In this document: piece by piece, positions 22,201-62,404 of the stretch
How the letters are laid out: every line of letters begins with the position of its first letter
How positions within the stretch are numbered: position 1 is the stretch's first letter
Assembly: GCA_012295275.1 (NCBI GenBank)
Contig: CM022671.1
Location: 32,984,001-33,048,000 of the forward strand
Direction: 5' to 3'
Length of the DNA: 64,000 nt
Source: Chrysomallon squamiferum
Taxonomy: Eukaryota > Animalia > Mollusca
Translations under genes and position numbers: made by a program
Notes under the pieces: generated by a model
Seen by the model: only the letters and a program-made list of their open reading frames with translations
The model's database searches: none
What the model was told of the DNA's origin: nothing

Positions 22201-23485
22201 GTTGAGGAGGCCGGCATGACCGAGGAAGTTGTACAAAAAGTAGGTCATATGTAAAATATATTGAAAATGATATTAAACTCTATAAATCCATCCATACCAG
22301 ATAAATATGTTGTTTATGGATGTCATTAATGTTAAATTTTATTATCTTGAAAATTGTTTACAAAATTGTTTCAGATTTGTTTCATTTAATGAGAAATTGC
22401 TAGTTTATTTTTGAGCAAATAAAAATAAAAATGACTATTTTTAAAATTACTCATGGTCATTAGAAGTGAGATTTGAAATAAAAACTGTGTCTTTAATTTT
22501 TCATATTTAAATATTTTTCTTATTCTGTAGCTTCAAGACAAGGCAACACTGTTGACAGCTGAACGTAAAAAGGTAAATCACAATGCAATAAAAATGTTTA
22601 TTTTCTTGTTAGCTTAAATTGTGTAAATTTTATTCTTATTACTTTTTCTTTTTTCCTGTTTTTTTGTTTTTGTTTTTGTTAAATAAAAGTATTTCTTCTT
22701 ATTAGTTAAAATATTTTATACATAAAGACTATATTGTTATTTTTTTAAATTATTGTTATTATTATTTTATATTTGCACCTGCTTTGTTAAATTAAATTCC
22801 TTTCAGTTTTAAGGTCATTGAGTTCATATATTATTATTCTTTTCTAGACCAGTACATTTTAAAAACAAATTTTATTATTACTCTCTATTATTTCCAACAT
22901 TCAATACCTTCTGGGTTTTTTCAGAGAGGTAAGACTGTACCAGAAGGCCTGGCTATAGTTGAAGATATAAGACAATACAGACAACTGGCTTCACATACTG
23001 TAAGTAAAAAAACACATAAGTTCTATTATAGTTAGGTTATACCTAATATACAATAACATTTTAAAATTACATGATTTTTGAGATATTCATGCTAAACATC
23101 ATTTTTGTATTTCAATTTTAATTCAGTCTATTTTTTTTCAGTTGTTATACTACAAATTGTTAAAAGAACACATTTACAAAAATTATTAATTACAAAAGTA
23201 AATTACCTTTGGGTTATTGATAAAACCATGACTGACATTGGATGACTATCAATATTTTCATATATAAATAGTGATTAATTATAATTTATTTACAGGGATT
23301 ACACAGTGCCAGTATTCCTGGAATTCTTGCTCTTGATCTCTGCATCAGAGACACATCCAGAATTGTCACTGGTTAGTCTCACTTTTATTTCATTTATATG
23401 TATGCATGTGTATTTTTATATCTTTCTTTTTTTCTTCTTCTTTTTTTTTGTCTTTTCTTCTATATCTATATCTATCAGTCTGTCT

Positions 23486-23527
<42 letters not shown>

Positions 23528-26500
23528 AAACATTTTTTAAATTGATTTGAGTGTGTTATTTCCTTTTAGTAATATTTGTTGAAATAATAGTTTGTAATTT
23601 CCAGAGTAAGACATTTATTACAATTTGATAGTTGTTTTTATTATTACTGTTTGAAATTTTAGGAGGGAATGACAAGAATGCTGTAGTCTTCAACAAGGAC
23701 ACTGAGCAGGTTATTGCCATTCTGAAAGGTCATACTAAGAAGGTCACCAGTGTCATCTATCACCCAGAGGAGGTTAGTTATGAGTAAATTCTTTTATTTT
23801 AGTAATGTTTGTATTTATCACATTATTTTGCCAAAATACAGAGAGACAGCTACATGAGCACAGATAAACTTGCATATGCACATGTGTAGACTTATATGTG
23901 CTAATTTTACTACTTTAATTCCTTATGTCTAATGGTTCTAAAATATATATAGTACATACTGTGTGAATAAGTGTATATGCATTTCAGATGTTTGACAGAT
24001 AAAATGACTTGTTTGTTTTAAACTGATAACTGTTAAATTTTCAGGAGCTGGTATTCACGGCATCTCCAGACAACACCATTCGTGTCTGGGGTGTGGCAAC
24101 AGCTCAGTGTGCCCAGGTGATTCGAGCCCACGAGGCTCCTGTCACTGGAATCAGCTTGCACGCAACTGGAGACTATCTGCTCAGTTGTTCTCTAGATACA
24201 GTAAGAATACATACATAGCATTACCTATAAAACTGTATTTAAAACATCAGTGACAGTCATTTTACGTACACTGATACAGATTGTGGTAGTGAATACGTAA
24301 TAGGCCAAACAGAATGGCCATCTCTTTGAAATCAAAATGCTGGCAATTTACAAACATAAATATTAATATAAAATATTGTTTTATCTCTCCATTTTCCTTT
24401 TTCTTGTTACTACTGCAGCTTAGTGTAATTAATAAAGTAAAGGGAAAAATAATATGTAATGAAATATTAAAAACTTTGTTTATTTTTTTTTTAAAGCAAT
24501 GTTTATGTTTAAATCTAGGAAATATTTTGCTACTTCAGTTTTAAAACAAAATAAAACACTGTAACTAGAGCCAGTAACTGACAACAAAACATAAAAAAAT
24601 ATGTTGCAAAACCTAATTAAACAGAAAGCCACTAAAATATTTAAGTTATGGATCAAGTTACTAATATCTTAATAACTCCAAAACATAAAGTATATTTCAG
24701 TAAAATACAAGTTTACATACAACTTTTGTAATATCCACAGATCTGGTTTGTTGATGTATTTACAATAATAATGTTTTTGTTTCTTAATGTTTGCAGAACT
24801 GGGCATTTTCTGATATAAGAACTGGACGTGTTTTAACTAAAGTTGGTGAGACTTCAACACAGTCGGCTGCTGCATTGACCTGTGCACAGTTCCATCCTGA
24901 TGGTCTGATCTTTGGCACTGGCACTGAAGACTCCATCATCAAGATCTGGGATTTGAAAGAACGTACCAATGTAGCAAACTTCCCTGGACATCAGGGTCCC
25001 ATCACTAGCATTTCCTTTTCAGAAAACGGTTAGATACACATACACACATTTTGTTTAATATTTGTTTACACTTTTATTCCAGTTCATGTACTGAGTTACT
25101 ATACCAAAAACAATAGGTTGTATAGAGGAATTAAAAAAAAGATGAATAATCTGAAAATATATTCAAATCCTGGTCGTTTTAGTAAGCCATTGTAAAATTT
25201 TCAGATCATTGATGTTTCAGGTTTTTGTTATTCATTTGTGTCAGTGAAAAAAGTATCACAAAAAAAGAGAAAATGTTGGCTCTGTGTATTGTTAAAAAAG
25301 GCAGCCTGTGAATATAATTAACAGAAAGTACAAAATTTATTTACTCTTGTTGTTTTTATCATCGAAGTCACATTGTAATAATATATCCATTGTTTAATCC
25401 ATATTTATTTTCTGTTACAGGTTATTATTTGGCAACATCTGCTGAAGATTCGGTTGTTAAACTGTGGGATTTGCGTAAACTGAAAAACTTCAGGACAATA
25501 ACCCTGGATGAAAAATATGAGGTGAGACCAGTAACTCAAGAAATTTCTAGTATTTAAAATTCAATTTTGTTCATATTATGTTTAGTGCTTAATAATAATA
25601 GCAGTATAAGAGTTCATCACCTGTTAAATGCTATTTCCAAAAGGTTGGACATTATAAACAGTTAATATTTAAAAAATAGCATTTAATGGTTGTTACTATT
25701 TGTTTTTTGGAGGTTTTTTTTGTTTGTTTGGGGATTTATTTCAAATGCCATTTTTTGGTGCAGGCATGACAAACATATACTTAGAGATTCATTTCATATA
25801 ATGAGTGACTTTTTAAATATAATTTTAGGTGAAGAATTTGTGTTTTGACCAAAGTGGTACTTACTTGGCTGTTGCAGGCACTGATATCAGGTAAAGTTTA
25901 AAACAATCCAAAATGTGAATTTTCTCTGTTAGTTGTTTCACCATTAATTGTGAGTGCTCGATATAAAATAAAGATTTAAACAGTAGCATCAATCATTTAA
26001 AATAAATCATTCTAAATGATGTTACTTAAACAGTGTAATATGCACATTTAAATGTTTTTTTTCATATTTATTTTTTATTTATTCCTGGTGAATGTGTACA
26101 TAATTTTAATTTAATTTTGCCATAGGATAACTCTTCTAAAAACTAAACAGTTTGTTTCCACAACATATTTTTTTCAAAGTTATCCATGTTTCTATTCATT
26201 TTTAGTATTAACAAACAAATACTTCATCACATAGGAGAATAAACCATTTTAGTTTAATCCTCTGTCTTAAATATGCTAATTTTGTAAGTTACAGTTAATC
26301 ATATTATGGAAGAGAATTGAGTGCTTTTTATATTGTCATGAATTTAATATGGGTTAAAGTTCAGTTTTGTAAATAATACTTAAGCATGTCACTTTTTGTA
26401 TTATCATCAATTTAATATGTGTTAGTGTTTTGTTTTGTAACAGTTAAGCATTTCGATACAGTGCTTTTCATATTATCATCTGTTTAGTGTGTGTTAGTAC

Positions 26501-26669
26501 TGTAATAATGGTGTTGTGTTTCAGGGTTTACCTGTGCAAGCAGTGGAGTGAACTCGTCGTCCTAAATGACCACACAGCAGCAGCAACTGGTGTACGCTTT
26601 GGTCACAACGCATCGTTCATCGCATCTGGAAGTATGGATCGATCTCTGAAGTTCTTTGGGATGGCATGA
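19261..26669 (+). CDS. PRPF19: Pre-mRNA-processing factor 19 (U-box, coiled coil, WD40), 16 coding exons
   Basis: Exons 19261-19279, 20004-20153, 20489-20565, 20867-20924, 21290-21373, 21794-21867, 22159-22239, 22531-22572, 22925-22999, 23296-23371, 23663-23772, 24045-24200, 24797-25028, 25421-25521, 25829-25890, 26525-26669; phases compatible. [26 protein letters not shown] (U-box), [55 protein letters not shown]. Confidence 0.97.
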
Positions 26670-29890: not shown

Positions 29891-29921
<31 letters not shown>

Positions 29922-31505: not shown

Positions 31506-31555
<50 letters not shown>

Positions 31556-32046: not shown

Positions 32047-32115
<69 letters not shown>

Positions 32116-32169
32116 CTGCTTTTAAAATATTATCCTTAAGAAAAATATTATAATGATATATAAGGTATA

Positions 32170-32268
<99 letters not shown>

Positions 32269-37968: not shown

Positions 37969-38808
37969 CCTAAAGACGTTAGAATCTGAACTGTGAATTA
38001 CAAAACTACGCCTAACAGTTAAATTTATATGCCTTACTGCATGCATCCGTAACTTATTCAGGATGTGCGTGTTTGTCACCAACAAGTATCAACAAATAAA
38101 GTTTAGTGTCAGTTACGGATCTATGGGGTTCCTGGGTTCATCCTCATTTGGTCAATTGTAAAATTATCGTAAAATTCTGTCTATCTATCTATCTATCTAT
38201 CTATATATATATTTGTCATGGAGAAAGGAATTCCACATATTAATATTATAGTATAGCATGAATGACACTTAAGATTTTACTTCTCAGCGTTACATTTTAC
38301 ATACATTTTAAGGTTCAGTTTAAATTTTGTTCTAGTGATAGAAGTGTGACGAATGCAGATATAATTATCTATACACTATATACATAATATCAGAGGTTTT
38401 ACCGCTATCCTATGTTCTAACGTTCTGGTTGAGATTCACTGATATAGTTATTACCGCAATGTTTCGGAAAATACTATCGCCTTATTTAGAAAACAGTTCA
38501 TAAGCTCATAAGGGAAACTAATACATTTAAAAAAAGTTTTGATGTTTTTTAACAATCAAATATAGTTTCCATAAATCATAATCGTCATGTGTGTGTGGTA
38601 GTATTAACATGTGTCTATTGAAATTTTAATAAAGATGAAAAAAATTAACTTAAAAATTAAAAAAGAAATTTACTAATTTTGATATTCATTGATATTCAGA
38701 AAATGTATTCAGTCACTGAAAAGACACCAGACTGCAGTCCACTTTTCAAAATCTGTATAACTTTCAAAACAATTTTCTTCAGATTTTTTAAACATTATGT
38801 GTCATTCG

Positions 38809-39064
38809 CAGTGGCATGCAGAATGGGGGTGGGGCAGAAGGGGTTGTGGCTCCGGGCTTCCAATCAGAGAAAAGAACTTAGTAAAGTTGGTTGATTTATA
38901 TTTAAATCAAATAAATCGTTTATTTTATGTTTTATCTGTGTTTAAATATTCAAAATATCTTCCTTTCTCATAATATTTCTCAGTTGTAGGCCTTACATTG
39001 GAGTCTTTGGGGCATTCAATCAAGAAGTTGGCCCCGGGCATCACCAGACCTGTGCACGCCACTG
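38809..39064. mobile_element. hAT-like MITE (256 bp)
   Basis: Termini CAGTGGCATGCA / revcomp CAGTGGCGTGCA; flanking 8-mers GTCATTCG and ATCATTTG (6/8 match); the paralogous site near 28316-28330 lacks the insert. Confidence 0.7.
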
Positions 39065-40308
39065 ATCATTTGTGTGTGCTACAATTTATTTATTTATTTA
39101 TTTATTTATTTTAATTATTCTTAAAATACAAAAATAGTCAGTAGATTTGTGGAATGTCTCCAGATATGGGACAGTTGACTTATACAAAACATTAAACACA
39201 AGGAAATCGTTTCAAATTTATTGTAAAACAGATGATGGTGATATATATATATATATATGAATACACTGAAATGCAAATAAAAAGAGAACAATTTCTTTTC
39301 ATTATAAAACAAAATGTCATTAGAATATTAATATATTATCTATGAAATGTAGTTTCTTGAATCCAGATGTTTAAATTAACATCAAAAAGCGTGTTTTTAA
39401 GACATTTCTGGAATACAATTCATAGAATATGAAAGAATATCCATAAATTATTTGTCCATTTATGATTTTTATAACATTTTATAATTTTTTTACTTTGAAA
39501 ATTACTTATCTATCTTCAACCGGGATATAAACAACAATTATTTAGTTTTTCTGAAATAATGAAAAATCAAATAAAATTCCACATGAATGATGACTTCTTT
39601 TGTTCATCATGGGTTAAATAAATAATTCAAGTAGTAAAGAGAAAGAAAAAAAACAACAACAGTGAAGTCAAAGTCATCATGACAAGATCTTTCTGATGTG
39701 AATTTAATAATATACATTCATTACATAACATCACAAACATTAACAGAATTAGTAGTATTCCAGTTCTGTGACAATCTAATTATATACCATTACTTGATGA
39801 AATTTCTTAAAATCAGTTAATGACACCATGTCCTAATACTGTGAACTTTATTATATAAAGCATTTCAGTGAGTCAGAAAAGGGTCATCTATTATAGAATC
39901 AATTAAAAAAGTATTTTTATGTCTAATTTATAGAGAAGACTGAAATAACTGTTTTATGGCTATAACCATTATCAAGACTCTACTAATACTAATAAAACAA
40001 ACAAAACATAATGACATACTAAAATAGAAACTGATACAAACTAAAATGTAAAATAACTGATTTATTTTATTTGTTTTAATTTTGTACACAGCACTTTATT
40101 AGTTCAGAAAGAATATACACCATTGGTAACATTTTAAAAAAACAAACCAAGAAAAACCAAGAAAAACCAAAGAACCCCCCCCAAAAAAAAAACCCACCAT
40201 GTATACCATTCAGCATCTCAGCTAAAACTTTTCTCTGTTTTGTGCCAGTTTGAAACTGTGGAAAAATAAATATTGTCATGGAAACAATGTTATGTTCTTT
40301 CTTTAAGT

Positions 40309-43300
40309 TCATGCCATCCCAAAAAACTTGAGAGATCCATCCGTACTTCCAGATGCGATGAACGATGCGTTGTGACCAAAGCGTACACCAGTTGCTGCTG
40401 CTGTGTGGTCATTTAGGACGACGAGTTCACTCCACTGCTTGCACAGGTAAACCCTGAAACACAACACCATTATTACAGTACTAACACACACTAAACAGAT
40501 GATAATATGAAATGCTTAAATGTTATTTACAAAACAAAACACTAACACATAATAAATTGATGATAATACAAAAAAAGCACTTAATTCTCTTCTATAATGA
40601 AATGCTTAACTGTTATTTACAAAACTAAACACTAACACATAATAAATTGATGATAATACAAAAAGCACTTAATTCTCTTCTATAATGAAATGCTTAACTG
40701 TTATTTACAAAACTAAATACTGACTCATTAAATTAACAATAATACAAAAAAGATCTCTTCCGTAATGAAATGCTTAACTGTAATTTACAAAATTAACATA
40801 TTTAAGACAGAGGATTAAACTAAAATGGTTTATTCTGCTATGTAATGAAATACTTGTCTGTTTATACTAAAAATGAATAGAAAAAATCTGTTGTGGAAAA
40901 AAACAGTTTAGTTTTTAGACCAGTTATAATAATAACTAAATGTATTTGAAACACTGAATGAAACTGCTATTTAAAACACTGTGAACTGAATTTTACTTGT
41001 TTCTTGGCAGAAACAGGATTTTGTAAAATAAGAAAAAAAAAACATATTTAAATGTGCATATTACACTGTTTAAGTATCATCATTTAGGAAGATTTATTTA
41101 AAATGTTTGATGCTATTGTTTAAATCTTTATCTTATATTGAGCACTCACAATTAATGGTGAAACTGCCAATACAGTGAAAATTCACATTTTGTTTATTTT
41201 AAACTTTACCTGATATCAGTGCCTGCGACAGCCAAGTAGGTACCACTTTGGTCAAAACACACATTCTTCACCTAAAATTATATTTAAAAAGTCACTCACT
41301 ATTTGAAATAAATCTCTAGGTATATGTTTCTCATGCCTGCAAAAAAAATGGCATTTGAACTAAAAACCCAAACAAAAAAAAAAACCCTCCAAAACAAATA
41401 GTAACAACCATCAAATGCTATTTTTTAAATATTAACTGTTTATAATGTCCAACCTTTTTGGACATAGCATTTAAGAGGTGATGAACTCTTATACTGTTAT
41501 TATTATTAAGCACTAAACATAATATCAACAAAACTGAATTTTAAATACTAGAAAGTTCTTGAGTTACTGGTCTCACCTCATATTTCTTGTCCAGGGTTAT
41601 TGTCACAAGGTTTTCCAGTTTACGCCAATCCCACAGATTAACAACTGAATCTTCAGATGCTGCCAGATAATAACCTGTAATAGAAAATAAATATGGATTA
41701 AACAATGGATATATTATTAGAATGTAACTTTACTGTTTTTGTAACTCAGTACATGAACTGGAATAAAAGTGTGAACAAATATTAAACAAAATGTGTGTAT
41801 GTGTATCTAACTGTTTTCAGAAAAGGAAATGCTAGTGATGAGACCCTGATGTCCAGTGAAGAACCCTATGCAGGTATGTTTTCTCAAATCCCAGATCTTG
41901 ATGTTGGAGTGTTCAGTACCAGTGCCGAAGGTCTGACCATCAGGACAGAACTGTGCACAGGTCAATGCAACAGCTGCACCAACTTTAGTTGAAACATGTC
42001 CAGATCTTATATCATAAATAGCCCAGTTCTACAGTATTTAAAAAACAAAAACATTATTATTGTAAAAAAAATTTATTACTTCTATACACATTAAAGATAC
42101 TAAATATTTGGGTATTACAAAATATATAGGTAAACTTTGGTTTTACTAAAGCATACTTTACAAATAAAATGTTTTAACATGTTAGGAAGCAGGTTTCTAA
42201 TTTACACATGTTAATGGTTTTCTGTTTATTTAACTTCGTATTGTAATAAGAAGAAAATGTTATATTTTGTTTGAACAACTTAAAATTAACATGACAGACA
42301 AAACAAGTGAAACAGATATTGAATACTGATTTTCTAAATGTTTTAAAACTAAAGTCTGCAACATGTGGCCTACATTTGAATATAAACATTATTCTAATAA
42401 AATAGACAATTTTTTATATTTCATTACATGTTATAATTATTCTACCCTTCAACAGTAACAGTAAAATGGAAAATAAAGAGATGAAACAATATTACATATT
42501 AACATTCATCATGGCCAGCATTTTGTTTTTAAAATGATGGCCAGACTGTTTGCCCTGTTAGTCATGGCCTGTGTATAACACTGATGTTTTAAATGCAGTT
42601 TTATAGGTAATGCTATGTATGTATGTATTCTTACCTTATCTAGAGAACAACTGAGCAGATAGTCTCTAGCAGCGTGCAAGCTGATTCCAGTGACAGGAGA
42701 CTTGTGGGCTCGAATCACCTGGGCACACTGAGCTGTTGCCACACCCCAGACATGAATGGTGTTGTCTTTAGATACTGTGAATACCAGTTGCTGTAAATTT
42801 AACAGTTATCAGTTTCAATTTATCTGTCAAAGATATGAAATGCATTATACAATTATTCGCACAGTATGAAATTATATATATATATATATATATACCTACC
42901 TACCTACATAAACACACACACACACACACACACACACAAAGAAATGAGAATGAAAGATTAGACATTAGGAATTAAAATACTGGTGCAAGATAACTAGAAA
43001 AATTAGTACATATATTTGGCTTATTTATCTATCTCTCTGTATTTCGACCATATAATGTGATAAATACAAGTATTACCAAAATGAAAGACTTTGCTCATCC
43101 CATATAACTGACCTCCTCTGGGTGGTAGATGACACTGGTGACCTTCTTAGTATGACCTTTCAGAATGGCAATAACCTGCTCAGTGTCCTTGTTGAAGACA
43201 ACAGCATTCTTGTCATTCCCTCCTAAAATTTCAAACAACAATAATAACAACAACCGTGCAATTGTAATAAATGATATACACTGGAATTTATTAATTATTA

Positions 43301-43943
43301 CTTCAAATATTACTAAAAAGATCTAAACACACACAAACCAATTAAGAACAAGTTTATATATTTATATACAGATAGATTGATAGATAAAGGAGAAAAGAAG
43401 AAAAAAGACCCCCAAAAAGATATAAAAATAGGCAGTGCATACATACAAATGAATTAAAAGTGAGACTAACCAGTGACAATTCTGGATGTGTCTCTGATGC
43501 AGAGATCAAGTGCAAGAATTCCAGGAATACTGGCACTGTGTAATCCCTGAAAATAAATTATAATTAATCACTATTTATATATGAAAGCATTATTAGTCAC
43601 TGACGGCCAGTCATGATTTTATCAATAACCCAAAGGTAACTGACTTTTATAATTAATAATTTTATTAAGTTTTTAGATTGCAAATGTGTTCTTTTAACAA
43701 TTTTGAGTATAAAAACTGAAAAAACTGAAAATGAAATAAACTGAATTAAAACTGAAAATTAAAAATGATGTTTACCATGATTATCTCAAAAGTCATGTAA
43801 TTTTAAAATTCTGTTGTACATTAGGTATATAACCTAACTAAAATACAACTGATGTATGTTTTACTTACAGTGTGTGAAGCCAGTTGTCTGTATTGTCTTA
43901 TATCTTCAACTATAACCAGGCCTTCTGATACAGTTTTACCTCT
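40309..43943 (-). CDS. Partial PRPF19 paralog (exons 9-16, WD40 region only) with intact frame; no start exon of its own identified
   Basis: Exons 43943-43869, 43546-43471, 43222-43113, 42790-42635, 42028-41812, 41674-41577, 41271-41210, 40453-40309 sum to 939 nt (312 aa + stop); all GT/AG sites retained; the only exon indels are in-frame (15 nt, 3 nt). Homology is certain, expression is not. Confidence 0.65.
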
Positions 43944-44705
43944 CTGAAAACCCATAGAAAATATTGAATGTTAGAAATAGCATAGAATAATAATAAAATT
44001 TGTTTTTAAATTTACTATTCTCGTACAGAACAATGATATGTAAACTCAATCCCTTTAAAATCTGTATACAAAAAATAAACCATTCCAGTGCATGTTTGTG
44101 TCTGTTGTTTATCAAAACAATAAGAAATAACTTTTCTGCTGAAGTATTGTTAAACAGATTCATTTATTTTGTACCAATTCATTATTAGCTAGACAAAAAA
44201 CAAATTGTGACACTCCTTTGCCTATGGTTAGATTTCTAGTAATACTGAACCAGTTAACAGACTCTTGTCTGTAACTATCCATGCTTATTTGGTTTGTGCT
44301 TTTCTAGGATGACAAACTGGTGGATCTGTATGTAGTACATTGGAACTAAAAATTGTTATTTAGAAAACAAATTATGGGTGAAATTCAAAAACACATGAAA
44401 ATTAAATTTATGATGAAACAAGTGAAACCAGAAATGAAACAAATATCACTATATATTAAAGACTTTATATGTAAATTTAAAAAAATATGTTTTGAAAGCT
44501 ATAATACACTGCTGCAAATTATAAATAAAAATCACTTCCACGTCTCTCGCATTCCAGCAAATTAAAAATAATAATAATAAAAAAATTAAAAAACAGTTTA
44601 TATTCATCTATATATTTATATTATTAAAGATGAAATTTTCAAGAGCTTATTTTTCTTCGTATTTTCTTGATGTACTTCAAAAAACTGTGCAAAATTTATG
44701 CTTAC

Positions 44706-46793
44706 ATAAACACAACCCTTCACCAATACAGCACCATCTTCATAGTCTTTGAGAACTGGCCAAATAAAGTAACTGATTGGCTTTCCATGTGACTGACAAC
44801 ATGACCACCACAACTTGTGCTTTTCACCATCAAATGTGTTGTCCTGTGTTGAAAATGTCATTGGTGGTTGTTGGATCACCATTTGCCATGTCAAACGAAT
44901 ACTTTCCTTGAGGAACTGGTTCACTGACTTGTGTCTGGAAATGTGTTTTGCAATGTCACTGAATTCAGCACTGAGGGAACGTTTAACAATCTAAAAGGCA
45001 GACGTATACATTTTGTAACATTTTAGTATCTGTCGTTAATAAAATGTTAGGTGTTGTTGGGGTAAAAAGAAAAATTTCAGAAAATGGGAGGAGATAGTGG
45101 CACAATTATTTATAAAAATAATATTAGTAATGAAAATAAATCTTTTCTTTAATATGAAACTTTTTAAATCATGTTTTATATAAAACTAATATTTATTTCT
45201 AGATGAATGCAGAATTATAATAACTAGTGCATTCATGAAAAAAATTCTGTAGAAATAATACATTTTTCAGTGTTACTTTTAATTATCTATTACTTACCTA
45301 AAAAAAAAGCTTCAGTATTTACATGTTCAGAGGTTTGTCGTAATTGGAAGCGTATTGCATGTGTCATTTCCTCCGGAAGTTGAGGGAGATCCCTACCAAT
45401 ATCTCTAATGACAGCCGTCTGCAATTTAATTATTACAAATGTAAACACTGGCTTGAAGTGAAAACAGCCCAGTGGATTATCCACCCAAGATCCATGCATT
45501 CTTATTATGTCTCCATAGGATTTCTTTTTAACCTACATTTTTAATAAAACTATACATCCACTGATGTAAATAAATTTACTAAATGAACTGAATTAATAGT
45601 ACTTATTATCCTTAATAATAATAAAAATAATTACAATAAGCTTTTTGTATAGCTTTTTTTTTTCATTAATTAGATAAACACCTTCCAATAACTTCAGCCT
45701 TTAATAAGTTAAATAAGTATAACGTTATCTAGTACATACAGCCAATGGTGGATTTCTCAGCAGCTCTGCTATAGCTAATTCCAGATTCTGGTAGATGGCT
45801 AATGTTGTATCATATGATGCCTGAATCAAATAAAATGTTATTGGGTGAGCAGAATGAAACATTATTATGTCTGATTTTAAGACTGTTAAAATAGATTTAT
45901 TTTTATTTTTAAATTTAGTTACTGTTTTACTCACTCACACAATGTCACTAACTACTGAAGAACTACTAAAACTGTATTGTGAACATTAATTCTAAAACTA
46001 AAAGTTATTATATAATTGTATGTGGTTTTAGTTTTTAATATATGTTGTAAAATGGATATTGCTGAATTTTGATTATGAGAAGACATTTTGCAATACAGTC
46101 TACACGCTGAAAGACTGTGAAGATTTAACTAATTACATATTATCAAGCAGAAAGTTTCTGATCAACGACCAGACTGATTTTAAAGCAAGGTTAAAAATCG
46201 TAATCATTAAAATAAAAACGAAACACTTTTCGCATTCATAAATTATGAGTTAATGTGTAAATTAATTTAAAGTGGAAAACAAAGAAAAAAGCATCCACCC
46301 ACTCCTGACTCTCTAACATGTAATACTTCTCAACGACATCTAGGGCGACATCTTTCGTTGATGTTTTCTGTTTCCTGATTACCTGTTCTTTGTCTCGGCT
46401 TCACATTACTTATCAGCCTTAAAGGGAGAAAGAATTTTATAGCTTGGGTGAAAAGAAAAAAGATATTTATAAATATTAATAGTATGCTTAAAACAGTCCG
46501 TTTGGGATATTAGAAAACAAGAAAAAATATTCTTATAACGTTTAATATTAATTTTGTTGTAGTTATTATTAAATGAACTATTGCTTATTTTATTTTAGAT
46601 CTTAACACATTCATATTGATTAATAATTATAATAATAATAATAATAATAATAATAAAGATAACTCATTATATGTAGAGAATAAAATAGTTATTATCAGAT
46701 ATAATTATGCTCCCTTTATTGTATTAATTTTTATTATTATTATTCTTTTTTTTTTTTTTTTTTTGTTGATGTTATTTATTTATTTATTTTTAA

Positions 46794-46864
<71 letters not shown>

Positions 46865-48107
46865 GAACTCATTTCAGTTTGTCATTTACATCTATCACAG
46901 TGATTGCGCTCTCAAAATTTTCATTCATACTTTTGTTTGAGTGATTCATTTTCGGTTTTGATTGAGGAGAGACTGGTTTCTAGGTTTTCCAAATCTCTTC
47001 TCGCTTTTTCTGCTTCTTTTTTAGATTCTTTGAGCTCTGTCGTGAGACGTTTGCACTCATCCTTCAAACTCTGCAGCTCTTTCTCTGTCTTGTGCATCTT
47101 CTCATTCTGTTGTTTGAGACATTCATTCTCGTTCTTTAGTCGTTCTATAACCGTTTTCATTTGACCTATATCATGTGATCCCTGACCTAGTCATAGGATT
47201 TTAATAATTAGATGATAATTGTGAAAGGTAAGATTTCACTGATAATGATTATCACAAGATAATGAAAAGATTAGTTAAAAGAATCTCTAAATAATAATAT
47301 ATTATTAATAACAGATATTATAAAATATAGTATATTATATACAAAGAAAGGATAAAATATATTATTTTCAGTAGGAAGGACAAAAATAATAATAATAATA
47401 ATAAATAAATAAATAAATAAAATAAAAATAAAAATAAAATATTTAAGTTTGCATCACAAAGAGAAATACTCTCAAAAATTATGGTCATCTATATACCCTT
47501 TTTTGATTATACAATAGCAAGACTGGTAGCGGACCTTAATTTGTGGGGCTCTGAAGCTTTAACTGTTACGGGGGTGCTTCGCAAAGAAGACTGGGTAGTC
47601 ATCGTTTTCTTCTATGGCTTGTTCCGCAGATATCAGTTATTGATTCGAATTCTGAAGTCAAGTTAATTAAAGTTGTTTCTGAGGTCTCTCTTTGTTTAGG
47701 AGCTCTGAAGCTGAAGCTTCATTAGCTTCATAATATGTGTCTTTAATATATAGATGAAATTGAAAACAAAGATGATTAATTTGAATTTTATATATATATA
47801 TATATATATAAAATTCATACCAGTGCTCTTGATAGGTATTTCCGTTTCTTTGTATTGTCCTATACCAACATGTTTCCGAAGATTCTCATTTTCCACCGAC
47901 AACTGACTGATACCCCTACTGTGTAAATGTCGTGGTGTGCCTGAATTTGATATTCTTTGGTTTATCCCCAGCAATCTGCACACACAGTTCCACACCATCT
48001 GCAGGCAATCCATTTGTGGGTCTTGCTTCTGCTTGAGGACGTCAGCAAGGCTAGCACGGAAGTTACGAGCCTCCGCAATCAAATCACTTTTGGGTTCATT
48101 CTATCAC
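44706..48107 (-). pseudogene. Coiled-coil + MIEAP/SPATA18 C-terminal-domain gene, copy 1 (disrupted)
   Basis: Exons about 48107-47821, 47186-46931 (coiled coil), 46417-~46290 (ENINERCRP/DVVEKYYMLESQEWVDA), 45820-45740, ~45532-45298, 44990-44706 (FLKESIRLTWQMVIQQPPM...ISYFIWPVL...VLVKGCVY). Lesions: ATG changed to GTG with a small deletion and TAG relative to copy 2, frameshift at about 46341, phase mismatch at the A-run 45300-45308. Confidence 0.75.
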
Positions 48108-48635
48108 AGTTCAGTTACTGTAAATAAATCATTATACACTATATGACAACGAGCACAAAATAGCGCACGCGCACACACACACACACTCTTACGTAAACAT
48201 GTATCTATTATCTATCCAGTATCTTTCTTTCTGTCCAGTATCTTTACAATACAATTCCAATATCTTGACCTTAATGGCCTAAGCTCTATCAGTAGAAGTA
48301 AACAGCGTGTTTTCAAGGAACACCCAGACAGTATACAATAACATCTGCTTTGTTTGAAATTATAGTGGTCGCATATATTTCATTGAAGCAGACGTTGTGC
48401 TTAAAGTTGTGCTATGGCTAAAAGAGAACTGGCGTCAACGCTGAGGAAAGAAAACTTCAATAAAATGATACATTGCCTTGAATTTATAATGGGAAATGGT
48501 TATTATCTTGCGGGAAATATTGGTTTAAGAGTGTATGTGTTTTCAGTTACTACTACTAATAATAATACAATGTCCTGCTTTAATATTGTACCGTTTCTAA
48601 ACAAAAAAAAATCATTTACACAGCAAAATACGTAA

Positions 48636-48638
<3 letters not shown>

Positions 48639-48706
<68 letters not shown>
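48639..48706. repeat. (GA)n microsatellite in the MIEAP-like/HSPA12 intergenic region (copy 1)
   Basis: GA run with the same flanks (ATACGTAAGC...TATTTGTAAAG) as the run at 60173-60348. Confidence 0.95.
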
Positions 48707-48710
<4 letters not shown>

Positions 48711-51700
48711 TTGTAAAGTGTAGAACAGCATGTTACTGACAGTTACATTTTAAAACGACAAATAGTAGAATGCAGTATTGTTAAGCAGGCTTGCTAAAAT
48801 TATAAAACCAGTAGAGTAGATCGAATAACATAGGGCAGAAGACAAGGAAATATTAATTTAAAAAAGAAATTATTTGAATTAAATCTTACCTTCTATTTGC
48901 AACGATCATGCAAATAATTCAACTGTCATTCACAAATGTATCGGATGATTAATTCCGAAATGTCCAAGACTGAAAGAATAATTTATTCGCGCAAGTGTAA
49001 AAGAAAACGTTTGATTTAATTGAATATTACAACACAGTTATGGACTTTAATCATTGATCTGTTTGGGCTTATTTCGTAATCATCACGTTTACAGTAAGTT
49101 GCCCACGTAAAAAAACCAAAAGAAAACCTTTGACCTTTTTGAAAGTAACATCACAGATGTGGACCTTTAATCAGTGATCTGTTTAAGCAGGTTTCGAAAC
49201 AGCCACGTTTACACTAACTTGTAAAAGAAACAAATTTGTTAAAACATCTGGTACAGTTTATTTATTCACATTCAGTTAGTGGATTAGAAGAAAGAAAACT
49301 CGATTTGTCTCCAAGTTTAATATTAATGAGAATAGCGTTATTTCAGATTTATTCCGATATAACACTCAACAAAGATGGCCGAAAAGGAATATGAAGTCGT
49401 CGTCGCCATAGACTTCGGTACGACATTCAGCGGTTACGCGTACTCATTCACATCGAGCAAAGAAAATATTTACATGAATAAAAATTGGGGAGATGATCAA
49501 GGATTTCAGATGCACAAAACTCCTACATGTCTTCTGCTAAAACCTGATGGCGAGTTCGAAGCTTTCGGCCTTGAAGCCGTGTCCCGATATAACGATCTGG
49601 AAAACGACGAGGCAGCTAATTACTACTACTTCGACAGGTTTAAAATGAAACTGCATAGTAACAAGGTGAGTTGCATATTTTTAAAATATCCTCTGATTTG
49701 CTTAATATTTCAGCTGAGTCTAAATGCTAAAGATATCATTAATTTGGAGCATTTCAACCATAACGATTACGGCTTTTTATCTAAATCACAGTTTGTGCAG
49801 TATGAGTTAGAAATGTATAATAAAAATAACAACAACAACAACATTTTTGTTATTTATTTTCTGCTTTTGGTGTCTAAGACTGTAACGTAGAAAGTTCCAA
49901 TCAGTCTCGGTACCACTCTGGCAAAGGAATGTTAAAAGACCCTCTATGTGGTCTTTCCTTGAGCATAAAAGCAGAGGTGACATTTTTGTTAGGGTGATCA
50001 GTTTTGAACAGGACAGACGGATAGTTTTTTGTTTCTGTGGATCTGTTTAAGTAACTGAAAGGTAGTTGTTGGCTTTCCTACAGGCATATATTTAACCATA
50101 TGTGTGTGTGTGTTTTGACGTATTATAAGGATTAGATGAAGGACAGTTGGTAATCTGAGATCAGATCGATCAATGTAAACTGTAGGCTATTATCTCTAAA
50201 ACAGGGGGTGAGAATAGCGGGGAATCTGTGGTCAACATTGACCATTAGTATTTGTAAGCATCGATACCACAGTAGTTTTATTATTAACTGATTGCCACCT
50301 CAACGTTCTGCTAAGCAATACGTTATTTTAATCTCACATATTGAGAATAGTTTGCATATTCAAATACATATTGAGGTGTGCTATTTTACCTCGACAGATA
50401 AACATATATAACGCCCTAAATTCTTTACTTATGTGGTGAGCCAGTAAAAGCTGGCGTGAAACTGTTTGTAAGCTTACTCGGTAAATAACTATTATTATGT
50501 AATATATAAGACAAATATTCTTTAAATCTAAACGTGTTGTTGTGTTTCTAGTGTATTTATCGTTGGCCAAATGTAAATATATATATCACCTTGTTCCCTG
50601 AATACCCATGGAGCCTAACCAAATCTGGTAGCTTTCAGGAATGTATATATTGAGCTGTTTGTTGAGGAATGTTGCGGGGTTCTAATTTGGTTACGTGACG
50701 GGTCGCATGCGACTGCGTTTACGCGCCGTGTCAAAGACTATGTAAATCAGCTTTAGTCTGTTTTAAACAGTAGGCATTAGACATGGACTTCTACAACCGC
50801 TAATATTCCTCATAGAGTCGCATCGACTTTTGTTCGTTCTTCTACCCTACATATTTATCTGTAATAATATTGTCATACTGTAATTTAGTCTCATGATAAA
50901 ATATAACTAAATCCATTTCAAGTTACAGTTACACCTCTGCAGTTAAATAAGTATAAGCTGTTGGTTTATGGAGTAAGATTCGTGTATGTTTAGTAACAGT
51001 CAAGTAAATATAGAATATAAATATCACAGAAACATATACATACATATTAAAGATTATCTGTAATATCTAATAATCCCACTTAATGCCAGGTAAAGACAGC
51101 TAGTCGTGTGGTTATTGGGAAAGGCAATGGCCAAAGGGAACTAAATCTAGTTGACTGGCCTGTACAATATAAGCGCTACATGCGCTAGAAATCAGTGCGA
51201 CAGAGACCCCCACCCTGGCTTAGTCAGAGAGCGTGCCTGTCGCAGACGTGCTTCACAACAATTCGCTCTGATTAGCATATACATCTTTTTTTCTGTCTGT
51301 CTGTCAAAAATCAGTCTCTTTCATTCAAGCGCCTTTACAGCAACAGAAATACATGCATACATACATACATTGATATGTACATGCCCATTCTCAAAGCTGA
51401 ATTGTACTGACGGTTCCTTCTTTACCATGTCAAAAGTCACTATACAATACGATTTTGTTTTCAGTGTATTGTATATGCAGTCAGAAAATTACACATGATA
51501 ACAATGTGTTTGTAACGTTAAACAAAATGGTTTATACGAGCGAAGTCACAACTCGGTTCATAAATAAATTAATTACTGTAACAAGTTTAACAGTATTATT
51601 TTTCATGTTTAAAGATTTATCTAATCTTAGAGGAATTTTTTATTATTTCTGTCGACGAATTTTTGTCACTTTATTACGTGCAAGTAAGTAAAAAAATATT

Positions 51701-52809
51701 AAATATTAGGAAATGCTGATCAAGGTTTTGTATTATCATACGACCAGAAAGTAGTCCGATTAAATTCGATGACAACAAAGGCGAAATAAACACAGTTTAA
51801 GCAATTTATTATTTTTATCATCGACACTGAAAAAAAATCACGTCTGAGCATTCCATCGTATCTAACTACATTTTAAACGATACTATGATAAAGGTTTTAT
51901 TGAATGTATGGACCACAACATCGCTAAGTTATCTCTACGTAATGATCGAAGCAAAAACAAAATAATCTACGTTTTCGGCAGCGTTTTCTTACAATAGGTT
52001 GCTAATATTTGAAAGAACTTAGCTGTACATACTTTTTGTTATAATTACGACCAAGCACACGACATTTTCACTGATAAGACCCAGGAATAGGAACTTTGCT
52101 TAGACAACAATAATGGCGAAGACAAGATATTATATTTTCATGGACATCAAATAAAATGCGTTTACTAATATTCTCAGCGATAATAGGGCCCACAAAATTG
52201 GTAATAAATGTTCGTGGTAAGATCGTACTTTCCACCGAGTTTAAGATGTTTCAATCGCTTGGTATGCACGACCTCCAGAAGTAGCGTTGTAGATCAATTT
52301 CCAGAATTTCCAGACTAACAGTCTATATAATAATTTAGGACACAGTATATTTCTCAACTAGATCACTTTTAAATATTTCAACAGAGATATATTTAATTTT
52401 CTTCACAATATCATACAGGAGCAAAGAAAAAAGAAATGGAAAAAAAAAAAAAAAAAAAAAAAGATTAACCAAAAAAAGATAAGTGCCTTTAATCTCTAAA
52501 ATTATATTATCAAGCAGATCAGGTGTTTAACTTTATTTACACAAAATATTAACAAAATTCTCCTCTCAGCAACAGTTTTTCAGGTTCGCAAAAATCGTAT
52601 AATCGAAAAGAAGTCATTATGGCATGTTGTTATGTCATATCATCAAGTACTGACTTTAAATTGGATGTTTATTTGTATATATATATACATAATTTTTAGC
52701 TAAGTCAGAATGTTAATTTCATATGATGCACTTGATATCCTGAACACTCCATACTTACACTACATTTTAATCAAATACTGTCTGTGATCAAATACTGCCT
52801 TTTGATCTA

Positions 52810-52844
<35 letters not shown>

Positions 52845-53725
52845 TTTCGTGCGATGAATTTAATATCCTGAACACTCCATACTTTCACTACATTTTAAGG
52901 TAATTATGACAATTTAACAAACTTTGATCACAATATTTGTTTCAATAAATTACGATAATAAAGCTTTAAACAACAGGCCAAACATTCGAGAAATTTGGCA
53001 GTACTCCATTTCTTTTCAAGTTATCATAAATATACAGTGTTACTTTTTACCTGTGATGCCTATATACCTACTCTCTATAATGTCTAAAAAATATAATAAT
53101 TATTATTTTTTGTAAAAATCGCCAAGTTTAAAATTTGGAAGGGAAGATACTTTCCTGTTTTTGCTGCTAGTTGATTTTGTGATGGACGTTTGGAAAATTA
53201 AAAATACTGATAGAACAGCAAAAACAGGATGCAGAGTGATCCAGATGGTTTCGAATTTTTTAATGTGTTGTATTATCGAATGCTTTATGAATTTCTTTGA
53301 ATTTTAAAACTTATCATGAAATAAACTGTATTTGTGCCATGTAAAAATTTGGTTTTCTAATTGCTTCCAAGATTATATTAACATAAAAAAAAATAATAAA
53401 AGGACCCTGATTGAATCTTACTGATTATCCTTCAATAAAATATTTCAAGTGTTTAAGCAGCCTGTCTTCATCAGTTAATCAGCTTAATACACGTTTTTTT
53501 TAACATCTTGTTTTATTTCTTCTCATGTCATCAGTCACATCCGATCACACTGGGCTGTTTTAAGATACTGACCTTTAACATCAACAGTTAGTATCACACC
53601 ATCTTCTAGTTCTTAAATTTATAAAAAAAAAAAAAAAAAATTGTAAGACATTCCATTAATATTTCCATTTAAAAGTTTTTTCTTCAAAATATTGCCTTTC
53701 TGTCACAGATCAACTCACCTTTTGA

Positions 53726-54016
53726 GAATGTAATCTCCTCTGTTTCATCTATTCCAGGCTTTGTAACATTCTCTGTTTCATCTATTCCAGGCTTTGTAAC
53801 ATTCTCTGTTTCATCTATTCCAGGCTTTGTAACATTCTCTGTTTCATCTATTCCAGGCTTTGTAACATTCTCTGTTTCATCTATCAAAGGTTTTGTAACA
53901 TTCTCTGTTTCATCTATTTCAGGTTTTGTAACCTCTCTGTTTCATCTATTTAAGACTTTGTAGCATTCTCTATTTCATCTATTCCAGGCTTTGTAACCTC
54001 TCTGTTTCATCTATCT
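53726..54016. repeat. 33-bp minisatellite, about 8-9 copies
   Basis: Unit CTCTGTTTCATCTATTCCAGGCTTTGTAACATT repeated head-to-tail in HSPA12 intron 1. Confidence 0.93.
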
Positions 54017-54129
54017 CTTTGTCATCTATATTAGTTTCTACAACCATATATACATTAATATGTTAGATATAAAATGTTTCTTTGTCAGTTTGTTTGTTTG
54101 TTTTTGCATGTTTTACACAACAAAAGATT

Positions 54130-54196
<67 letters not shown>

Positions 54197-54276
54197 TGTT
54201 AGTGAACTTCAGCATGTACTGCATTTGTTTCGCTCACGATTTTCGTGTAATAAATGTTTGAAATCAATCACACACA

Positions 54277-54313
<37 letters not shown>

Positions 54314-54424
54314 CGAGAGACACAGACAAAGAGACAGATAGGCAATAAATAAAACTGATAACCTTATCCCGAATGAACTTTTGTATAAACTAGCAGTAAT
54401 GAACTTCGAAAGTTGAAACGTTGA

Positions 54425-54494
54425 CAGTAGAAAACCTCTGAAACTCGAACTATTTTACTGGCACTTTCACGTTCGAATGATCGAACTTTGACTG
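54425..54494. mobile_element. Short pogo-like MITE remnant, shared with copy 2 (about 62468-62537)
   Basis: CAGT...CTCGAAC and GTTCGAA...TGACTG-TA inverted ends; present at the homologous position in both HSPA12 copies, so it predates the duplication. Confidence 0.4.
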
Positions 54495-57400
54495 TATTTC
54501 TTTTCTTTTCTTTATTTTATTATTATTATTTTCTTATTCAGAGTTTAAGTGTAGATACAGTTATCGAAGATGTCAACGGAAAGACTAAACTAGCGGTGGA
54601 CGTGTTTGCCAAATCACTTAACTACATTAAAGAACATGTGCTTGGTGCCATAAGTCGTCATTAGGGTTATGACCCCAACCCTGACACCATTCGCTGGGTT
54701 CTCACTGTTCCGGCAATCTGGGAGGAAAATGCTAAACAGTTCATGAGAGAAGCTGCCTATATGGTAAGATTAAAATTATAGGCGGATATGATGAATTGTG
54801 AAATATTGTGCCTTAAGATATTCAAGAAAAATCATTAAAATTCAATATATTTATTCAAGTTTGGAGATGAATCTTTAAAAACAAAAATTGGATATTTAAA
54901 TTTATTTATTTATTTATTTATTACAAATATTACATTCAGAGAAAATATGACGTTTATTTATTTATTTGTTATTGTTTCGCCATCAGGCTAGTCTTATATC
55001 AAAAACCAACAGTAAACAGCTTGTTATTGCACTAGAACCGGAAGCAGCATCTCTACACTGTCGCCATCTGCAAGTCACGGATTTCGTGGGTAACAAGGAC
55101 AACGCTTTAGCGGTTAAACCAACTTTTGAGCCGGGCACAAAGTATATTGTGATAGACGCTGGTGGTAAGAACACATTATTTAATTATATGATATTTTAAA
55201 ATGAAAAACTTTTGAATAACTAAAAAAGTTTTAAAAATAGGAATAAATTTATTTTTATGTTCTAAATTAATTTACGTTGTAGGTGGAACCATAGATGTTG
55301 TGGCGCACGAAGTTATAAAAGATGAACAAGTCGGAGAACTGTTTCAAGCCACGGGTGGTGCGTGGGGAGGAATTACCATCGATCTGCAGTTCCAGAATTT
55401 GATGGACAAAATCTTCGGCACGATGTTCATGGCCGAATTCAAACGAGCTCACCCGAAGGATTATTTTGAACTCATGCTTGACTTTGAGATAAAGAAACGA
55501 GGAGATTGCGAAAGCATCCGAGTGTCTTTACCCTACAATTTCTGCAACTTCAAGTGCGATGACACGTCCGTTCAGCAAGCGATAAAAGCCTATGCAACTG
55601 AAAACAACAATGAAGTGAAATTTTCCTCAGGGAAACTGGTTCTAACAGCACAGGTTGTGAATTCCTTCTTCAGAGACACCCTTCTGCAGATTAATGATCA
55701 CATCAAGGGCTTGCTAAAAAAATCCAAAATTAAAGATGTAAAATATATATTCCTTGTTGGTGGTTTCGGCGAATCGCTAAGACTTCAGAACTCCCTAAAG
55801 ACCCATTTTGGTGAAAGACTTACTGTTTTGGTTCCAGAAGAGGCTAATTTGTCTATAGTACGTGGTGCGATTTTGTTTGGTCATGATCCCAGCTGCATAT
55901 TTCAGCGAATATGTCGCTTTACGTACGGAGTTGATTACGCTCCACATTTTGAAGAAGGAAAATATCATGAGGATCTCAAGCTCATCGCAGAAGGTGTCAC
56001 TTACTGTAATCATGTTTTCCACACGTGGTCAGAAGCAGGCGATATCATACCTTATGATAAAGTTTGGCAAGGAACGTATGGTCCGATGTATACTAATCAG
56101 GATCGTATGCAATTCGATATGTTTCGATCCAGCAAGAGAAACATCAAATACACTGACGAGGAAGGCATGGAGAAATGCGGTTCTGTCATAGTTGAAATGC
56201 CAGATCTTACAGGGGACAAGGAAAGAACAGTCGACCTCGAAGTAACGTTTGGAGGTACAGAATTGAAGGTTGTAGGAACAGACGACAACACCAAAATTAA
56301 ATACGAAACATACATAGACCTTTTATCAAATTAGTATGTATTTGCTGAAAATGTTACACTTTGATCAGGTAACCAAGCACATTCTTGGAATGATGGATAG
56401 AAAGTGTGAAAAGAACTATATTTAAGACTCCATGGAAATGATACAAAATCTGTGTATTTACATACAAATGCTACAAACCAGAGAAATTATTTTAAATACA
56501 GTATATTAGCTATAGTATTTAGAAAATACTGTTTTTTTTGTTTTTTTTTTTTTTTAAATTTGCATTTAAAATATTAAGAAGACATGGGTTTCGAAACATT
56601 TTGACATTTTAGGCAGTGTGTCAAATTATATACTTAACATTGTTAAATCATTATAAACACTTTATTTACTATTTTACTTTAGTAAATTAGCATCATCTTT
56701 GCTGTGAAACTATATGTGTGCCTTTTATTTAAATATCACTATTATAACAAGATTGTAATAACCTTAAAATACTAAATTTGTAAACATTAATATGTACTAT
56801 ATCTTAATCTTTAATATGTATCAATAACCACGTTAATATCTCGGTTTGTTCAGGACCAGGTTTTCTCGGGTTTTTCTTGGTATATTTATTTGGGTTATAC
56901 TTATTCTTTGTGAAAATTTTGTATGAGATGAAATTTTAATACTGAATTTTTATAACTGCGATTTGTTTGAATGTGTTAACAGGGCAGACAGAAAACGATT
57001 TTTTTAAAAATTAAATTGAAAAAGTGATTAGTTTAAATGTATTAGCTGATCTATTTGTATTTCTTCCAAGACATAATAAAATATTTATTTTTGATTCACA
57101 ATCTTTATTTTTAGCTTAATTTCATCATCATTACATACAACGATATGCATACATACAAAAAAACCTGCATACATTCATAGTAATTTTATGTGGCTGTAGG
57201 GTGGGTTTTCTTCTGTTTTCTTTTTGTTTTAACAGACTAAATCATTAATTAAAAATATCTTTAGATACTAATTTATCCAAATTTGAGAAAACTAAATTAC
57301 CAGAAAATTTTTATAATATTAATATGTATCTTTAAATACAGTTTCATTCTTTACATTTTAATATATCTAAAGACTCTGTCAAAAAAGTTGGTTAATTCAG

Positions 57401-58528: not shown

Positions 58529-58575
<47 letters not shown>

Positions 58576-58754
58576 TAAAAATAAAGAGAATTCACTATAA
58601 AAAGAGACTAAAATAGTTATATATCAGATATAATTATGCTCCCTTTATTGTATTAATTACTATTATTATTATTATTATTATTACATGGAACTCATTTCAG
58701 CCTGCCATTTACATCTATCACAGTGAATGCGCTCCATAAAATTTTCATTCATAC

Positions 58755-60170: not shown

Positions 60171-60353
<183 letters not shown>

Positions 60354-62352: not shown

Positions 62353-62397
<45 letters not shown>

Positions 62398-62404
62398 CAC
62401 ACAA

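Follow-up and report, generated by a model that had tools for sequence, protein, structure and literature searches.

An inverted partial copy of PRPF19 in Chrysomallon squamiferum, probably the 3' half of a chimeric gene from a young family

Here we consider a stretch of 64,000 nucleotides from the mollusc Chrysomallon squamiferum (assembly GCA_012295275.1, contig CM022671.1, positions 32,984,001 to 33,048,000; hereafter the window, with positions counted from its first letter), which holds the gene PRPF19, an inverted partial copy of it and, beside that copy, a Mieap-like gene. The reading that we think probable, with real room for doubt, is that the copy has a chimeric origin and was under selection in the past, PRPF19 exons 9-16 forming the 3' half of a Mieap-like fusion gene. 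On our verdict it belongs to a family of chimeric genes that is young and brings together two domains in a new pairing.

Two copies of PRPF19 in one window

The parent PRPF19 gene (Table 1) encodes a protein 84% identical to those of Lingula, Littorina and Plakobranchus, and it is expressed, as a spliced RNA contig bears parent-specific letters. The coding part of the duplicate runs from 43943 to 40309 on the minus strand and comprises exons 9-16 (939 nt, 312 aa plus stop). An initial annotation made from the letters alone had described an intact 312-codon frame in eight exons, with every GT/AG preserved and exon indels in multiples of three, and alignment of duplicate to parent bears this out: seven of seven introns have GT..AG, the exon-9 acceptor is also preserved, and the two exon deletions, of 15 nt in exon 13 and 3 nt in exon 14, are both in frame. 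The same alignment agrees with the many indels that it reported in introns and UTR: the non-coding parts differ at 666 of 3750 aligned columns and have 61 indels, one quarter of which are multiples of three. The MITE that it listed is present as a MITE-like 256-nt insertion, located in the 3' flank. The AATAAA that it saw retained is indeed kept, at 40071 and 39852, but this carries low weight, as there are eight such words in 1.6 kb of this AT-rich flank.

The duplicate is about 84% identical to the parent over the exon 9-16 part and, like the parent, has seven WD40 repeats; the Prp19-type WD40 family PF24814 was the best family for all five duplicate exon frames scanned. Pfam finds the U-box in the parent only, and the duplicated segment begins in intron 8, so that the U-box lies outside the copy, as does the tetramer-forming coiled coil (PF08606, parent exon 5). 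Within the window there is no second copy of PRPF19 exons 6-8. The 312 residues of the duplicate contain a single Met, at the penultimate position, and the start must therefore lie upstream of exon 9.

One might ask whether the second copy is an assembly artefact, such as a misplaced second PRPF19 haplotype. The proximity of the two copies is all that favours this explanation; 12% synonymous and 18% non-coding divergence speak against it, and it is refuted by duplicate-type DNA contigs in the runs of other studies. One such contig, from run X2, covers 41782-42733 with four differences and no gap. We consider an artefact extremely improbable. The duplicate is present in other animals as well, as four of nine listed runs, from three studies, contain at least half its words. 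Its own protein was not among 27 protein matches, and scans of metagenomes for the gene yielded 88 stretches by protein, none of them confirmed, and none by DNA pattern.

Splicing of a Mieap-like exon onto exon 9

The last exon of the Mieap-like gene, which matches PF16026 at 63.9 bits (cut-off 27) and has a coiled-coil exon upstream, lies on the same strand as the duplicate and ends in a phase-0 donor 762 nt upstream of exon 9; this arrangement was spotted before RNA was examined. Two RNA runs from one study (X8 and X9) and two non-RNA-labelled runs (X7 and X2) bear on it, and all contig counts and differences given here refer to the matches listed (one table giving 8 contigs per run). In X8, one of 17 aligned contigs carries the joint 43943|44706 (ends CT..AC), in frame, at depth 3.9 and with 28 letters on its shorter side; the joint is in neither X7 nor X2 among the matches listed. 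Another X8 contig, identical to 44706-44807, starts precisely at the Mieap-like donor, and two X9 contigs depart from the window at that same donor. The longer of these matches PRPF19 exon 7 in register and frame, at 23 of 30 visible letters in a single run, and because the window has no second exon 7 the exon-7-like contigs must come from sister copies or alleles. A further X9 contig is spliced from exon 12 to exon 13 without the parent's extra 15 nt and differs from the window at five positions. Spliced transcripts of duplicate type, the first thing that the initial annotation had proposed to look for, do exist. Its suggestion that the propeller is used alone fares less well and is wrong, or at any rate not the best reading, since the RNA joins the propeller to the last exon of the Mieap-like gene, one of the neighbours it had set aside as disrupted.

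Traces of how the joint arose can be seen in the relatives of this exon. With the likeness set at 80%, an unfused Mieap-like copy is found in both RNA runs (23 differences in 189 letters). It has a stop directly after 44700, and its 3' untranslated region (UTR) matches 44392-44532; the fusion intron therefore consists of former 3' UTR and of PRPF19 intron 8, which meet at about 44060. Most close Mieap relatives (the best 150 of 305, plus four) end in GCVxAS-stop, where the window reads GCVY followed by GT, and a change in the next-to-last codon of the Mieap-like copy probably created the donor just before the old stop. Both parent genes persist, PRPF19 in the window and the unfused Mieap-like copy in RNA. 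In X9 the depth columns nest, from the unfused copy through a copy with 12 differences and a copy with six to the window, and the nested depths sum to those of the two exon-7-like joints. This contig arithmetic suggests a single fusion at PRPF19 exon 7, followed by further copies, with exons 7-8 lost here. The RNA contigs of sister copies, each of them short, are in frame at every joint seen.

It is also conceivable that the copy encodes a stand-alone propeller of 316 aa, started from the ATG at 43955 on a transcript with an unspliced 5' end, which would compete for the partners of Prp19 or divert them as a decoy. The parent lacks that ATG, which lies in frame, but one would be expected by chance about one time in five (~0.18); an unspliced X8 contig spans 43916-44128, but it is no deeper than other intronic contigs. 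All four clear breaks fall in the 5' Mieap exons (a chance of ~0.03 if evenly spread), and this clustering may also hint, weakly, that the 3' part continues to be retained. When published partner surfaces (Y405 and pocket 1) were mapped onto the duplicate, the Tyr equivalent to human Y405 and the three pocket-1 Lys proved to be kept, yet the erosion of Prp19-invariant residues described below speaks against binding of the old partners. Moreover, the exon-9 acceptor is taken by the upstream Mieap-like exon. We regard a free-standing propeller as quite unlikely.

Probable selection on the propeller and the state of this copy

The survival of frame and splice sites was simulated under neutrality with 16 parameter sets. 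In 12 of these (indel/substitution ratio <=0.12) survival was 0.0003-0.08, with 0 of 3000 in two of the 12; the upper value belongs to the mildest setting. At the best-fitting settings (4.5-6% divergence per lineage, 0.06 indels per substitution) it was about 0.001-0.012, so that the open frame's survival, which the initial annotation had wished to see simulated, is improbable under neutrality. For exons 12-14 alone the neutral chance is ~0.003 that none of the 43 non-synonymous changes makes a stop, that both indels are in threes and that the 12 splice bases survive. These exons are too divergent for fresh gene conversion.

The ratio of non-synonymous to synonymous change (dN/dS), another of the proposed checks, gives a divided answer. 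It is 0.17 in exons 9-11, 15 and 16 (five non-synonymous and nine synonymous changes) and 0.84 in exons 12-14 (43 and 16; Fisher p=0.013 for the contrast), and the overall value for duplicate against parent is 0.59. The altered residues are mostly derived in the duplicate (39 of 43), the parent agreeing with more of 19 homologues; these 19 were taken from the 27 matches after eight partial or distant ones were excluded. The changes hit 22 of 138 near-invariant Prp19 columns, mostly in exons 12-14, and 21 of 174 other columns (p=0.33), and in three true orthologues 3-8 of about 143 near-invariant columns are changed. Because its changes do not spare Prp19-invariant columns, unlike those of the orthologues, the duplicate is, on sequence comparison, free of Prp19-family constraint.

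A different picture emerges from a generic WD40 profile, for which eight bacterial proteins supplied 73 repeats. The duplicate scores 122 bits and the parent with the same deletions 135, while neutral mutants with equal changes per exon score 82+-11, and none of 1000 reaches the duplicate's 122; nor did any of the 500 mutants made under each of nine other pairings of mutation bias with profile half. With the Prp19 profile the duplicate scores 523 against a neutral 506-510, a value that 14-37 of 500 mutants reach. These simulations place changes evenly within exons, where the actual changes cluster. At 41857-41883 in exon 13, for example, there are 12 base changes in 27 nt, several codons differ at two or three positions, and an invariant Prp19 stretch has been replaced by one fitting the general WD40 pattern. 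Two repeats have presumably lost a tetrad residue, judging by the WD40 consensus (D379H, and T417A with a one-residue deletion). The duplicate has no new prolines (p=0.07), which does not separate it from neutral expectation. Taken together, the scores indicate that the WD40 fold pattern was likely retained while the Prp19-family surface was lost. Exons 12-14 carry 43 changes against 21-39 expected from the local neutral rate, and positive selection on them is suggested rather than established.

The most obvious competing explanation is a transcribed pseudogene, in which read-through from a broken Mieap-like gene and noise splicing yield the RNA, and the frame was kept by chance and by gene conversion from the parent 14 kb away. 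An overall dN/dS of 0.59 is close to what a neutral copy of a conserved gene would give; the changes fail to avoid invariant columns; and non-coding divergence is patchy, at 0.03-0.33 per 300-nt bin. The weak donor, the low depth, a deletion variant in X7 and the four broken neighbours point the same way. Against this, exons 12-14 have retained frame and splice sites despite their divergence, the generic WD40 score is well above neutral, exons 10-11 have no amino-acid change amid introns that are 12-18% divergent, and neutral evolution combined with disabling changes in the copied exons, which would mark an unprocessed pseudogene, was not found. We therefore side with the initial annotation that this is not a simple pseudogene, given that spliced duplicate-type RNA exists and that the propeller pattern is preserved beyond neutral expectation, and we hold the pseudogene explanation of its history to be unlikely. 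As a description of the copy today it may yet hold, should the function have disappeared not long ago.

The case for a chimeric gene that was once selected nevertheless meets several difficulties. The exon-9 joint is seen in one contig whose shorter side, at 28 letters, falls below the bridge criterion of at least 31; both RNA runs come from a single study; and unspliced contigs (depth 3-6) reveal DNA or nascent RNA in the libraries. Past the exon-7-like joints only 23-30 letters are visible and X9 shows exon 9 with parent letters only, so that the sister fusions may or may not extend to the propeller, and no contig among the matches listed connects the propeller with a 5' Mieap half that is free of breaks. 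The fusion-intron donor is weak, scoring 1.7 against 5.8-12 for parent donors with a matrix trained on those donors. Exon 12 of the duplicate goes uncovered in X8, as do the frameshifted Mieap exons of the window itself in both RNA runs, although such contig holes are no proof of absence. On the side of selection, 4 of 46 large hydrophobic residues have become polar, which does not fall below the neutral level (4.3), the excess of change in exons 12-14 reaches significance only with a neutral rate per lineage of less than ~0.09, and the last Mieap-like exon is near neutral, with 10 non-synonymous and seven synonymous codons among the 20 listed differences used (eight of the 10 non-synonymous changes are derived here, though just two of 23 near-invariant residues are changed). 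In this very copy, moreover, the Mieap half has lost its start and about 25 codons and carries two frameshifts. These frameshifts are real, as X2 contigs cross both sites with no indel there. Finally, X7 DNA has a 230-nt deletion that takes the last 22 codons and the stop, in a single contig (depth 21.8, side 50). The null allele in other individuals that the initial annotation had named as telling against function may therefore exist, in one DNA run, if the deletion marks an allele rather than a paralog. An X8 RNA contig begins at 40377, the same breakpoint, and the truncated form is possibly transcribed.

What, then, can this copy still make? No intact frame runs from the start to the end of the MIEAP domain. 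At the two frameshift sites the RNA contigs are in frame (four of four and four of four), the four at the T run having one base fewer than the window; since both frameshifts are shared with X2 DNA, the expressed copies must be others, and with its 5' Mieap exons broken this haplotype cannot yield a complete fusion, some 740 aa long. Skipping of exons, with phases worked by hand, does not rescue the frame from Mieap exon 3 onward. The frames still open are of 407 codons when counted from the last Mieap-like exon onward, of 371 when begun at the 44882 Met and of 316 from the ATG at 43955. This copy is probably a shortened form, the 371-aa one, or a recently inactivated member of the family, and we find it doubtful that it functions at present. 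As a separate observation, X7 and X2 have C at position 45300 where the window has A, giving a stop at the end of the frameshifted exon.

Neighbouring genes, proposed product and meaning

Beyond the duplicate the window contains a tandem direct duplication (46525-56334 and 58430-64000, about 12% divergent) of a head-to-head pair of Mieap-like and Hsp70-type genes. Both Mieap-like and both Hsp70-type copies are broken, in keeping with the earlier statement that four neighbouring duplicates are disrupted. Small exon-like pieces lie on the plus strand at 44309-44330, 46094-46190 and 57960-58056. Between the two PRPF19 copies, at 29560-35125 on the minus strand, is the gene of an astacin metalloprotease whose zinc motif is intact and which carries a ShK-like domain at its C-terminal end. 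Upstream of PRPF19 two genes stand head-to-head, at about 3400-8841 (minus strand) and 9520-17815 (plus strand), which from their translations we take to be GPN1-like and HPS4-like; one exon of the second measures 1.8 kb and includes a 42-nt repeat (14706-15263). The end of a coding exon occupies 1-355 (plus strand) at the start of the window. Minisatellites with units of ~48, 42 and 33 nt are found at 37102-37842, 36076-36455 and 53729-54017, in flanking DNA and in an intron of the Hsp70-type gene.

Table 1. Positions of the features discussed (window coordinates; the Streptomyces genes are in coordinates of their own loci)
Feature	Position	Strand	Remarks
Parent PRPF19	19261..26669	+	16 exons, 513 aa; U-box, coiled coil and WD40 (Pfam)
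Partial PRPF19 duplicate, inverted	38735..44060	-	Intron 8 to 3' flank; matches 22807-28388
MITE-like insertion	38809..39064		256 nt, 12-nt inverted ends; 3' flank of duplicate
Deletion variant	40147..40376		230 nt, 16 filler letters; allele or paralog; run X7
Duplicate exon 16 with stop	40309..40453	-	
Duplicate exon 15	41210..41271	-	
Duplicate exon 14	41577..41674	-	8/33 residues altered; 3-nt deletion at invariant Ala
Duplicate exon 13	41812..42028	-	21/72 residues altered; 15-nt deletion in variable loop
Duplicate exon 12	42635..42790	-	9/52 residues altered
Duplicate exon 11	43113..43222	-	0 amino-acid changes
Duplicate exon 10	43471..43546	-	0 amino-acid changes
Duplicate exon 9	43869..43943	-	Phase-0 acceptor; joined by Mieap-like exon in RNA
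In-frame ATG	43953..43955	-	12 nt upstream of exon-9 acceptor; not in parent; 316 aa if 5' end unspliced
Fusion intron	43944..44705	-	762 nt, GT..AG; 5' part former Mieap-like 3' UTR, 3' part (from 44060) PRPF19 intron 8
Last Mieap-like exon	44706..44990	-	95 open codons, same frame as exon 9; first Met of this frame at 44882
Mieap-like exon	45298..45418	-	+1 frameshift in T run (one extra base at 45300)
Mieap-like exon	45740..45820	-	Open
Mieap-like exon	46290..46417	-	2-nt deletion near 46336; last ~25 codons and donor gone
Mieap-like coiled-coil exon	46931..47186	-	Open
Mieap-like first coding exon	47821..48117	-	GTG here in place of the sister copy's start codon; 5-nt deletion
Hsp70-type gene	49375..56334	+	Head-to-head with Mieap-like gene; internal stop at 54662
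Streptomyces coiled-coil gene (possible Hsp70 partner), L009	6070-6804		
Streptomyces coiled-coil gene (possible Hsp70 partner), L010	6070-6792		
Streptomyces coiled-coil gene (possible Hsp70 partner), L011	6079-6789		
Streptomyces coiled-coil gene (possible Hsp70 partner), L012	6076-6807		

The Hsp70-type neighbour raises the question of what the Mieap domain does. Its exons matched an annotated 'Hsp70 family protein' by tblastn and received no name from Pfam, NCBIfam or PDB sequences; from its motifs we take it to be HSPA12-like. A structural model of the last Mieap-like exon (pLDDT 90) resembles GrpE: in VIA the top four of 12 rows were GrpE (Z 6.0, 5.7, 4.9 and 4.6, all under 8, the next being 2.4), with an rmsd of 4.4-6.6 over 72-85 residues and 7-13% identity, and in Foldseek the top six rows were GrpE at E 0.06-2.2, none of them significant. 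The predicted order of elements in the Mieap-like protein, coiled coil, bundle and beta head, would also be that of GrpE; in fold searches with the whole protein the matches were dominated by the coiled coil. A predicted complex between the Mieap domain and one half of the nucleotide-binding domain of the Hsp70-type protein scored 0.28 (mark 0.34), which is uninformative either way. On Streptomyces plasmids a coiled-coil protein of about 240 aa, so far unannotated, is encoded within 10 nt downstream of the related Hsp70, at all four loci opened of eight matches. Its tail is faintly Mieap-like (W.SCD; hhalign 33% and 6%), with profile searches not significant, and it is possibly a bacterial partner of this type of Hsp70. 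A role of the Mieap domain as co-chaperone of the Hsp70-type protein is a lead, not a result.

What might the fusion protein do? Prp19 is known to need its U-box for ligase activity, to form a tetramer and bind CDC5L and SPF27 through its coiled coil, and to contact RBM22/Cwc2 and RPA through its propeller (PMC8869861, PMC5587784, PMC3046128). One report on human Mieap has the C-terminal domain driving mitochondrial concentration, with lipid binding proposed (PMC10845071). Selection likely preserved the propeller fold while the Prp19-specific surface changed. An intact product of about 740 aa would consist of a long coiled coil, a helical bundle, a GrpE-like head and a seven-bladed propeller, its Mieap half replacing the U-box and tetramer-forming half of Prp19. 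Because both N-terminal parts of Prp19 are missing, such a fusion would neither ubiquitylate nor find a place in the NineTeen complex, and it would most likely serve as an oligomeric adaptor whose rewired propeller binds new clients. Sister copies with unbroken Mieap joints probably carry this function. A bolder version is that, in a small and rapidly evolving family of full-length Mieap-Prp19 proteins, a GrpE-like co-chaperone of the adjacent HSPA12-type Hsp70 captured the Prp19 substrate receptor and positive selection retuned blades 2-5, so that new clients would pass to that chaperone and not to ubiquitin; we think this improbable as it stands. If it were true, Mieap proteins in general would prove to be exchange factors of the GrpE type that had escaped notice.

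Set beside known systems, the duplicate shares with Prp19/PRPF19 (PMC8869861) exons 9-16 and the seven WD40 repeats, and the kept Tyr corresponds to a residue given for RPA binding (Y405; PMC5587784); it differs in having no U-box, no tetramer coiled coil and another 5' partner. With Mieap/SPATA18-like mollusc proteins (PF16026) the window copy shares a coiled coil followed by the MIEAP domain, with exons that match one by one, and it differs in that the stop is bypassed by a splice and the 5' half is broken. The closest Mieap relative among the matches listed is Gigantopelta aegis LOC121375364, at 69% over the last exon. In bivalves the Mieap and Hsp70 families are both expanded (PMC8382680).

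CHRFAM7A is reportedly a 5'-truncated duplicate rescued by fusion, and on our analysis the locus would seem to work like a chimeric duplicate of that type, being neither Prp19 nor a plain pseudogene. Such rescue of 5'-truncated duplicates is documented for GTF2IP1/4 and HYDIN2 (PMC6169893), where again the 3' part of a conserved gene lost its promoter and is spliced from an unrelated upstream duplicate. In comparison with these, the case in the window is older (12% synonymous), is in frame with a whole upstream domain, and is multi-copy with a remodelled surface, not a near-identical truncation. The 'tinkering loci' of Drosophila (bioRxiv 10.64898/2026.08.09.743762) likewise have a cluster of partly broken duplicate pieces giving a composite transcript; the window differs in that one of the donors is 14 kb distant and the pieces of the cluster stand in tandem.

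Neither WD40 profile scores in any of 154 Mieap-family proteins (four plus the best 150 of 305), and the four Atlas feature rows listed for Mieap-family proteins include no WD40 family. Long Mieap relatives (750-2140 aa) were also scored, and none of 7990 candidates passed, which is weak evidence. The literature matches listed contain no Mieap-WD40 fusion, PRPF19 chimera or Mieap-GrpE link. As far as these searches reach, the Mieap-Prp19 pairing and the pattern of a kept fold with a changed surface are new.

The expected fate of a partial copy of an essential spliceosome gene is death, or poisoning of the complex, and this one apparently survived by fusion to a duplicate of an unrelated stress gene, giving up the former binding surface but not the fold. 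It offers a datable, multi-copy new domain pairing caught between birth and decay, in which 43 altered residues mark what the propeller of Prp19 needs beyond folding. The GrpE-like Mieap fold beside an Hsp70-type gene, for its part, suggests a function that can be put to the test for a little-understood domain, widely expanded in molluscs.

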